Shown here: positions 13,108 through 13,198 of the stretch, piece after piece
How the letters are laid out: each line of letters starts with the position of its first letter
How positions within the stretch are numbered: position 1 is the stretch's first letter
Sequence record: PQ471515.1
Strand: one strand, 5' to 3'
From: Escherichia phage Turkey3
DNA: 64,000 bases
Position numbers and translations under genes: made by a program
Notes under the pieces: generated by a model
What the model saw: the letters and a program-made list of their open reading frames with translations, nothing else
Told to the model about the DNA's origin: nothing
The model's database searches: none

Positions 13108-13198
13108 ATTTTAAAGCATTTTAATAATCAAATTTTTCAGTTCTATAAATAATATCATACTGAAAAACGAATATAACATCTTTAAGGAGATAATAATG
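13108..13198 (+). repeat. conserved ~90 nt late leader, copy B (upstream of major capsid gene)
   Basis: See copy A at 10355-10443; contains TATAAATA at 13144-13151. Confidence 0.6.
13144..13151 (+). promoter_or_regulatory. T4-type late promoter (TATAAATA)
   Basis: Perfect TATAAATA about 45 nt upstream of gp23 start. Confidence 0.5.

Follow-up and report, generated by a model that had tools for sequence, protein, structure and literature searches.

The late promoters of bacteriophage T4, which are activated by the sliding clamp (gp45) with gp33 as co-activator, carry their box at positions -13 to -6; single deviations from its sequence are tolerated, and an A at -13 is frequent. This 8-bp box is placed about one helical turn upstream of the transcription start, and the promoters are described as needing no upstream element (PMC2988020). 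Closer to the phage studied here, the work on the RaK2-like jumbo myoviruses CBB and GAP32 gives ATAAATA as a predicted late promoter at 35 sites in CBB, and in GAP32 as well (PMC5259590). Here we describe two related control regions, copies A and B, in a 64,000-nucleotide stretch of Escherichia phage Turkey3 (PQ471515.1; the whole stretch is called the window), which comes from a RaK2-like jumbo coliphage of the Asteriusvirus group. Both copies lie inside a T4-like head module on the + strand and precede virion head genes, and they add further instances of the ATAAATA late promoters that have already been predicted for this phage group. The repeat that they form is real and non-random, yet it is an ordinary pair of late-gene control regions of that kind: we consider A and B to be probably two instances of a recurrent regulatory cassette that consists of a terminator-like element with a T-run, a T4-type late box, a short AU-rich 5' untranslated region (UTR) and a strong ribosome-binding site.

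Similarity and layout of the two copies

Copy A (10343-10443, + strand) is the intergenic region between a gene for a 75-amino-acid (aa) protein and a gene for a 276-aa virion protein, through the ATG of the latter, and orthologous regions are present in 17 relatives. Copy B (13098-13198, + strand) comprises the last codons and stop codon of a scaffold-like gene, the intergenic region that follows and the ATG of the major capsid gene. In a blastn comparison within the window, positions 13106-13198 of B matched positions 10352-10443 of A at 76.0% identity over 96 columns, with 16 mismatches and 4 gap openings (E 8.6e-12); when more flank was included, the alignment began at 10343 in A and 13098 in B and took in an A-run. 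The Smith-Waterman score of the pair was 77, compared with a mean of 19 and a maximum of 35 for shuffled sequences (z = 17), and A-B ranked at the top of the 741 pairs of upstream regions in the window (runner-up 36, 99th percentile 28, background mean 16, standard deviation 4). The first-pass annotation of this DNA had described the two regions as near-identical over about 90 nt, with the late promoter motif in both. The similarity is indeed found where it was placed, far exceeds chance and extends past the promoter octamer and the Shine-Dalgarno sequence, but the identity is ~74-76% with indels, and B has the canonical motif TATAAATA while A has ACTAAATA, which differs by 2 nt.

Reading from 5' to 3', the layout shared by A and B is an A-run; an A/T-rich segment, AC(T/A)TTTTAAAGC(A)TTTTAA(A/T)AAT; AAATTTTT followed by CAGT(A/T)C; the box; ATATCATACT; ~30 nt of AU-rich sequence; GGAG(G); and ATAATG. 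The two copies match at ~81% upstream of the predicted transcription start and at ~63% within the 5' UTRs of ~38 nt. As the stretch of the repeat with the highest conservation precedes the predicted start, "late leader", the name under which the repeat was first recorded, is a misnomer, and what survives of the idea of a shared promoter/5' UTR module beyond the minimal motif is a promoter and ribosome-site module that reaches past the octamer and is not mainly leader.

A search of all phage records with a 93-nt query showed two full copies per Asteriusvirus genome. The sole further match was a third occurrence of the extended box, the 15-mer ATAAATAATATCATA at 25616-25630 (- strand), which is upstream of a virion structural protein gene (24915-25514, - strand) and is also present in the closest relatives. 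With two copies per genome and flanking genes that are not paralogous, the repeat does not resemble a dispersed repeat or mobile element; nor is it a relic of gene duplication, an origin that we rejected because neither the scaffold-like nor the capsid protein shows similarity to the 276-aa protein. No family was found in an Rfam scan of 9900-14700 at E values up to 1, and a pattern scan of IMG/VR for more genomes returned phage 121Q alone.

The region ahead of the scaffold-like gene (11921-11992), which had been regarded as a shorter version of the same module under the label gp22, does not belong with A and B. The alignment scores of this region C (11924-11989, + strand) to A and B were 22-24, inside the background, and C shares with them the box, the ribosome site and two short strings, nothing else. 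One of these strings, TTTCAGTAC, lies upstream of the promoter in A and B; in C it lies downstream of it, in a leader hairpin. Judged by its sequence, region C is an independent predicted late promoter with a leader hairpin of its own and not a copy of the module.

Predicted late transcription of the head module

ATAAATA occurs at 19 sites in the window, and 15 of these are intergenic, correctly oriented and 21-116 nt before starts. The genes behind the 15 sites are mostly virion genes, encoding the baseplate hub, a tail fibre, the capsid protein and several virion structural proteins. A sample of 150 kb from the near-identical phage fEgEco12, taken as three further 50-kb pieces, added thirteen such sites, one of which precedes the tail sheath gene, and the association of the box with virion genes holds genome-wide. 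The extended pattern ATAAATAW-N4-WTA was observed 7 times compared with 0.98 expected. The octamer TATAAATA, on the other hand, was not enriched in the window (4 observed, 6.4 expected), and so we take the 7-mer ATAAATA to be the working core. A full T4-type 8-bp box is present in B (13144-13151) and in C (11935-11942), and copy A (10390-10397, + strand) has it loosely: its two deviations are in the first two positions, as in the Aeh1-type variant, and set it apart from the TATAAATA of Kae01, CBB and others. A scan of the + strand for sigma-70 promoters found none in A, B or C.

The window also encodes the C-terminal part of a gp55-like late sigma factor at its left edge (23-370, + strand; phrog_12791, 1.4e-152; phrog_234, "late sigma transcription factor", 1.5e-16; no Pfam match). 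The full gene in fEgEco12 (L001:1436-2374) encodes 312 aa, of which the 181-position gp55 profile covers residues 161-295 only, so that there is a 160-aa N-terminal extension. The fEgEco12 gene that corresponds to 22138-22869 carries the annotation sliding clamp, and PHROGs assigns it only to a family of unknown function. With the box at -13 to -6, the T4 spacing would place the starts at ~10403 in A and ~13157 in B, at the A of a conserved CATAC, and would thus give 5' UTRs of ~38 nt.

Copies A and B differ in their capacity to fold. In A, a terminator-like hairpin (10348-10378, + strand; -7.9 kcal/mol) with a TCGC..GCGA clamp and an A/U stem is preceded by an A-run (10343-10347) and followed by a T-run (10381-10385); it therefore has the G+C stem-loop and T-run of an intrinsic terminator, though a weak one in the window, and a simple terminator scan, which required an uninterrupted stem with at least 3 G-C pairs, did not pick it up. 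No consensus came from RNAalifold when the A hairpins were aligned with MAFFT, the alignment being out of register, and each sequence was folded separately instead. Under this procedure the hairpin position folds in 17/17 phages (-5.7 to -20.8 kcal/mol; -12 to -21 in most relatives), with GC clamps that change by lineage (CGC/GCG, TCCG/CGGA, GTGCCA/TGGTAT, ATGGCA/TGCCAT, CCAGC/GCTGG, GGGGCA/TGCCCC). Such lineage-specific compensatory clamps are what a conserved intrinsic terminator should show. Other genes of fEgEco12 likewise have a hairpin with a T-run directly ahead of ATAAATA (pieces L024 at 4726, 38874 and 42438; L025 at 3346; L026 at 7075), and this recurrence identifies copy A as a standard terminator-promoter junction. 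The predicted 5' UTR of the 276-aa gene (10403-10440, + strand; Shine-Dalgarno GGAGG at 10431-10435) showed no significant structure on folding (-4.6 kcal/mol, z about 0).

In B, the upstream segment (13106-13143, + strand) has sequence like that of the A hairpin without the GC clamp, followed by a T-run (13133-13137) and CAGTTC. The alignment shows CGC of A replaced by AAA and GGCG by C, and because of this replacement B does not fold: the segment gave 0.0 kcal/mol from the stop codon and -0.1 with the A-run in the window, which is not an intrinsic terminator, and across the 17 phages no structure was predicted for B either (0.0 kcal/mol in 16/17, -0.3 in PA5oct). Since A folds and B cannot, the two copies share sequence without sharing the same structure, and B looks like the junction type of copy A minus a working stem. 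Its canonical box TATAAATA (13144-13151, + strand), with a predicted start near 13157, gives the capsid gene the most canonical box among the predicted late promoters of the module. The predicted AU-rich 5' UTR of the capsid gene (13157-13195, + strand; GGAG at 13186-13189) is unstructured (-1.9 kcal/mol, z +0.5).

Two further predicted late promoters of the module have leader hairpins. In region C, the box (11935-11942) is followed by the hairpin AAGTAC-N10-GTACTT (11954-11975), which directly precedes the ribosome site of the scaffold-like gene (GGAG, 11979-11982) and is kept in relatives by G-U wobble changes, a pattern that points to a role at the RNA level. Variants of this hairpin include AAAGTGC...AGTACTTT in Hallingskeid and GAGTGC...GTACTT in fHe-Yen9-04; RaK2 and Muenster lack it. 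A late box ATAAATA (10042-10048, + strand) at the portal stop codon lies upstream of the 75-aa gene and is followed by a leader hairpin at ~10061-10087, which lacks a T-run and is therefore not a terminator. The predicted hairpin is strong (-18.7 kcal/mol for 10040-10115, z -3.7), and within Asteriusvirus its stem shows compensatory changes (GAGGGTA/GCCCTC, GAGGGTT/ACCCTC, GAAGGGAA/TTCCCTTC), whereas its loop varies freely.

On these grounds we propose that the gp55-like sigma factor of the phage would read the late box, that the Asteriusvirus lineage either kept or acquired ~75% identity along the whole length of the two copies, and that A and B would not be functionally equivalent. The hairpin of A would partly stop transcripts arriving from the portal and 75-aa genes, with transcription restarting from the variant box ACTAAATA. 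The module would contain a staircase of four predicted late promoters, at 10042 (75-aa gene), 10390 (copy A, after the weak terminator), 11935 (scaffold-like gene) and 13144 (capsid gene). As B lacks a clamp, transcripts begun at 10042, in copy A and at 11935 would read through into the capsid gene and add to those that start at 13157, with no effective terminator before the strong intrinsic terminator 3' of the capsid gene (14415-14434, + strand; -16.6 kcal/mol, z -4.7), which is likely to be the end of all late transcripts of the head module. The predicted result is a dosage gradient in which mRNA rises along the module and is highest for the capsid protein. Graded expression could thus arise without any special role for the duplicated sequence, a simpler account than the module that sets head-protein stoichiometry suggested by the first-pass annotation. 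Overall, this yields a testable map of head-module late signals, comprising four predicted late promoters, a weak internal terminator, a stemless terminator-like element and a strong terminal terminator. The map suggests how capsid mRNA might exceed that of the scaffold, protease and core proteins, and it should be useful for annotation and engineering, several phages of this kind being therapy candidates.

We also noted late boxes in unusual settings and strings that did not qualify as signals. Tandem late boxes precede the baseplate hub/lysozyme gene g331 of fEgEco12 (piece L024 43390-43420, - strand; record ~184930-184960), separated by TTTCAGTACT (ATAAATATTTCAGTACTATAAATAATAATGAGG), and the string TTTCAGTACTATAAATAATA found there is almost the same as in copies A and B. 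At 61511-61584, the loop of a terminator-like hairpin, AAAAAACTCCAAGATT...AATCTTGGAGTTTTTTT, holds a late box ATAAATA (61549-61555), such that the promoter sits inside the terminator of the preceding gene. An imperfect palindrome at 39940-39985, CCATAAATATTAGTATAAATTTATACCTATTATTTATGG, has ATAAATA on both strands and was put by a crude gene call inside an open reading frame (39773-40969); it may represent a divergent promoter region with a mis-called start. Among candidate signals, the upstream motif TTTA(AAGC) at -35 was present in 10/15 window promoters and was not reproduced in the 13 independent fEgEco12 promoters. The string C[AT]TTTTAAA, found just after the stop codons in A, B and C, was rejected on 12 occurrences overall compared with 16 expected. 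The leader motif ACGAATATAA, which B has in common with the tail-sheath leader and with copy A of some relatives, turns up repeatedly within coding sequence too. The predicted tail-sheath leader (fEgEco12 piece L026 35829-35860) contains ATACGAATATAAT, which includes this 10-mer of the capsid leader, a match that may be a coincidence.

Conservation of the copies and alternative explanations

Copy A of the window aligned with the A regions of RaK2, Kae01 and Hallingskeid at 73-76% identity, and copy B with their B regions at 71-85%; by these alignments, each copy has its orthologue at the matching position in other genera. Within genomes, the A-B identity is 72% in Asteriusvirus and 62-67% elsewhere, near the floor for such AT-rich sequence. 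Upstream of the box, A-B similarity is significant in Asteriusvirus only (z 4.5-11.7), marginal in RaK2 and Kae01, and absent in the Mimasvirus/Eneladusvirus group and the Vibrio phage. The 19 nt of box and start region have 13-18 identical positions in nearly all phages and co-vary by lineage (ATCATAC here, GTTATATAA in the Vibrio phage), and the leaders show modest A-B similarity in several lineages, chiefly near the ribosome site. The module therefore cannot be upheld as a conserved feature of the wider group: extended A-B similarity is confined to Asteriusvirus and, weakly, RaK2, and the other genera share the box, the start region and the ribosome site only. In a tree of the protease, scaffold and capsid proteins, Asteriusvirus groups with RaK2, and both of them have B in its long form and A in its CTAAATA form.

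Among five Asteriusvirus genomes, the intergenic region of B varies in 7.6% of columns, that of C in 7.4% and that of A in 17%, compared with 36-62% of third codon positions in the flanking genes. Nine close relatives carry copy B at 100% identity and the remaining Asteriusvirus genomes at 96-99%, and of the upstream 38 nt of the B intergenic region, which do not fold, 2/38 columns vary among the five genomes. By this measure, purifying selection on the intergenic region of B is strong.

Several points weigh against the cassette explanation. Because a T4-type promoter needs nothing upstream, a simple promoter of this type does not explain the strong conservation of the non-folding upstream part of B. 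The A-B similarity upstream is far higher in Asteriusvirus than in the sister genera. The hairpin of copy A is weak in the window (-7.9 kcal/mol, z -2) and its box is non-canonical, such that A may be a poor terminator as well as a poor promoter. A gp33 homologue is reported as not found in CBB and this group (PMC5259590), so that activation may proceed by a mechanism unlike that of T4. Further, our literature search found no transcript mapping for this phage or genus, which leaves promoters, starts and termination as predictions; the RNA-seq paper on PA5oct, a phage in which hardly any spacer separates the scaffold gene from the capsid gene, reports sigma-70-like promoters only and gives no transcript evidence for the head module.

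A different view of the constraint is that the shared segment from about -50 to -14, AC(A/T)TTTTAAAGC(A)TTTTAA(A/T)AAT...AAATTTTTCAGT(A/T)C, is a specific cis-element that defines a special class of head-gene promoters. Such an element could act on DNA, as a UP-like or curved upstream promoter element or as a binding target of a phage factor or of the sigma factor's 160-aa N-terminal extension, or it could act on RNA in read-through transcripts, as an AU-rich processing region of the RNase E type. This view would account for the near invariance of the upstream part of B (2/38 columns) in a segment unable to fold, and it is consistent with the core GC(T/A)A-T-run-C(A/T)G, kept just before the box in the B intergenic region of all enterobacterial genera, with the recurrence of TTTCAGTACTATAAATAATA before the baseplate hub/lysozyme gene and with the large part of the sigma factor that lies outside the gp55 profile. 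However, no upstream motif at fixed spacing is common to the 28 predicted late promoters, C[AT]TTTTAAA shows no enrichment, the GC-containing motif stands at distances from the box that vary between genera, and T4 late promoters do without an upstream element (PMC2988020). We regard a specific cis-element of this kind as rather unlikely. The related proposition, that 13106-13143 and its mirror in A are a lineage-specific cis-element, whether an upstream promoter element read by the enlarged sigma factor or another phage protein or an RNA processing or anti-termination site, we also hold to be unlikely; if it were true, a "head-gene" subclass of late promoters would exist with an upstream requirement that T4-type promoters are thought not to have.

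The confinement of significant upstream similarity to Asteriusvirus could also be the mark of short-patch gene conversion between direct-orientation regions 2.75 kb apart, which would have homogenised A and B in the Asteriusvirus ancestor and left flanks without function. Variants do co-occur within genomes, with AAATTTTT in both copies in the window and AATTTTTT in both in phage A4, and the mid-leader of copy A (ACGAATATAA in ph0011, UE-S1 and JNE01) matches B and not the A leaders of other genera. A test for co-varying sites in 10 Asteriusvirus genomes nevertheless gave a suggestive but inconsistent pattern, UE-S1, for example, having AATTTTTT in B and ATTTTATT in A. Moreover, the copies are orthologous to their positional counterparts, both the hairpin clamp and the leader's 3' part are specific to the locus, and the B region of RaK2 shows a weaker form of the layout, which makes at least part of the similarity older than the genus. 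Both regions also vary less than synonymous sites do, which speaks for function and against neutral homogenisation, and conversion is accordingly quite improbable. The very AT-rich composition might invite the suspicion that two low-complexity intergenic regions resemble each other by chance, as T- and A-runs match easily and TTTTAAA fits direct as well as inverted repeats; the score of 77, which neither the shuffles (maximum 35, z 17) nor the next of the 741 pairs (36) approach, together with the blastn E value of 8.6e-12, refutes this explanation and makes its likelihood negligible.

The cassette explanation thus remains the one that we favour. Conservation is higher in the sequence ahead of the capsid promoter than in the neighbouring coding DNA, and if this constraint acts at the DNA level, then the T4 paradigm would be modified for a distant branch; otherwise the A-B finding is routine regulatory architecture.

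Neighbouring features and comparison with known systems

On the + strand, the head module comprises the genes for the portal (8303-10039), the 75-aa protein (10113-10340), the 276-aa virion protein (10441-11271; PHROG family "virion structural protein"), the prohead protease (11303-11923; Peptidase_S77), the 371-aa scaffold-like protein (11990-13105) and the major capsid protein (13196-14371; Pfam Gp23, 1.5e-89). The names given to these genes in the earlier annotation are reasonable by synteny, except that homology does not support "prohead core" for the 276-aa protein: it has no Pfam match, and its PHROG family name says nothing more than virion structural protein. The orthologue in phAPEC6 was detected in virions (PMC7247149). 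Across Asteriusvirus, the 276-aa gene varies far more than any other gene of the module, with variation in 42% of columns and 62% of third positions as well as indels, compared with 15-16% variable columns in the protease, scaffold and capsid genes; the protein itself is acidic and repeat-rich (EVKDEEKLDED-type stretches). Over 10000-14500, identity to the window is 99% in Escherichia phages WPEC3, vB_Ec-M-J and fEgEco12, ~90% in 121Q, PBECO4 and phAPEC6 (Asteriusvirus), and 72-76% in the other RaK2-like jumbo myoviruses fENko-Kae01, CBB, GAP32, RaK2, Serratia BF and Yersinia fHe-Yen9-04.

Directly after the capsid-gene terminator lies a gene for an HNH/homing-type endonuclease of 365 aa (14516-15613; phrog_681, 7e-76), with a perfect sigma-70 consensus promoter, TTGACA-17-TATAAT, ahead of it at 14455-14483. 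The window and 121Q (gene 604) have this endonuclease gene, and the 99%-identical fEgEco12 lacks it at the same position, where a 116-aa gene directly follows the capsid gene; the endonuclease gene is therefore an insertion polymorphism beside the capsid gene. Elsewhere, four diverged direct repeats of ~49 nt (TATCAAAAACTAACACAAGATTTTAT...) at 51820-52171, within the gene 51736-52509, are probably a repeated protein motif. A second promoter-like class, (T)GAGACAA or GGACAAA followed after ~17 nt by a TATAAT-like hexamer, lies ahead of non-structural genes, among them the sliding clamp gene at 22138 (sites at ~18090-18125, 22040-22075, 47390-47420, 53870-53900 and 40975-41005). It resembles the divergent RpoD-like promoters with the unusual -35 sequence TGAAACG that have been reported for CBB and GAP32 (PMC5259590).

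Of the systems with which the locus can be compared, the gp55-dependent late promoters of T4, successive ones of which lie in its head cluster 20-23, are alike in the 8-bp TATAAATA box with AT-rich DNA just downstream, in the absence of a predicted sigma-70-type -35 hexamer, in a phage-encoded gp55-like sigma factor and sliding clamp, in boxes that precede virion genes and in the gene order of the head module. They differ in that the sigma factor here has 312 aa, including a long N-terminal extension, and that a gp33 homologue is reported absent from the group. Moreover, the working core here seems to be ATAAATA plus the start region (W-N4-WTA), with copy A carrying ACTAAATA, and the two promoters share ~50 nt of extra upstream sequence that T4 promoters do not need. 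The ACTAAATA variant of copy A corresponds to the late consensus of Aeromonas phage Aeh1, (a/g)C at -13/-12, as given in PMC2988020; in Aeh1, however, this is the genome-wide consensus, whereas here it is a single variant locus among ATAAATA promoters, common to Asteriusvirus and RaK2/Muenster. Compared with a back-to-back Rho-independent terminator and promoter, copy A has the A-run, the GC-clamped stem-loop and the T-run with the promoter box directly after, albeit with a weak stem (-7.9 kcal/mol), and copy B has the A-run, the T-run and the A/T part of the stem, without the clamp or a predicted structure. A further match is the motif predicted for CBB and GAP32 (Buttimer et al. 2017, PMC5259590), which comes from the same phage group and is likewise ATAAATA before structural genes with A/T-rich sequence downstream. 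The accessible text of that work treats the short motif only and does not describe the packing of terminator and promoter, the pairing of A and B, the clamp-less form of B or the Asteriusvirus extension; the orthologous regions of CBB and GAP32 align with copies A and B.

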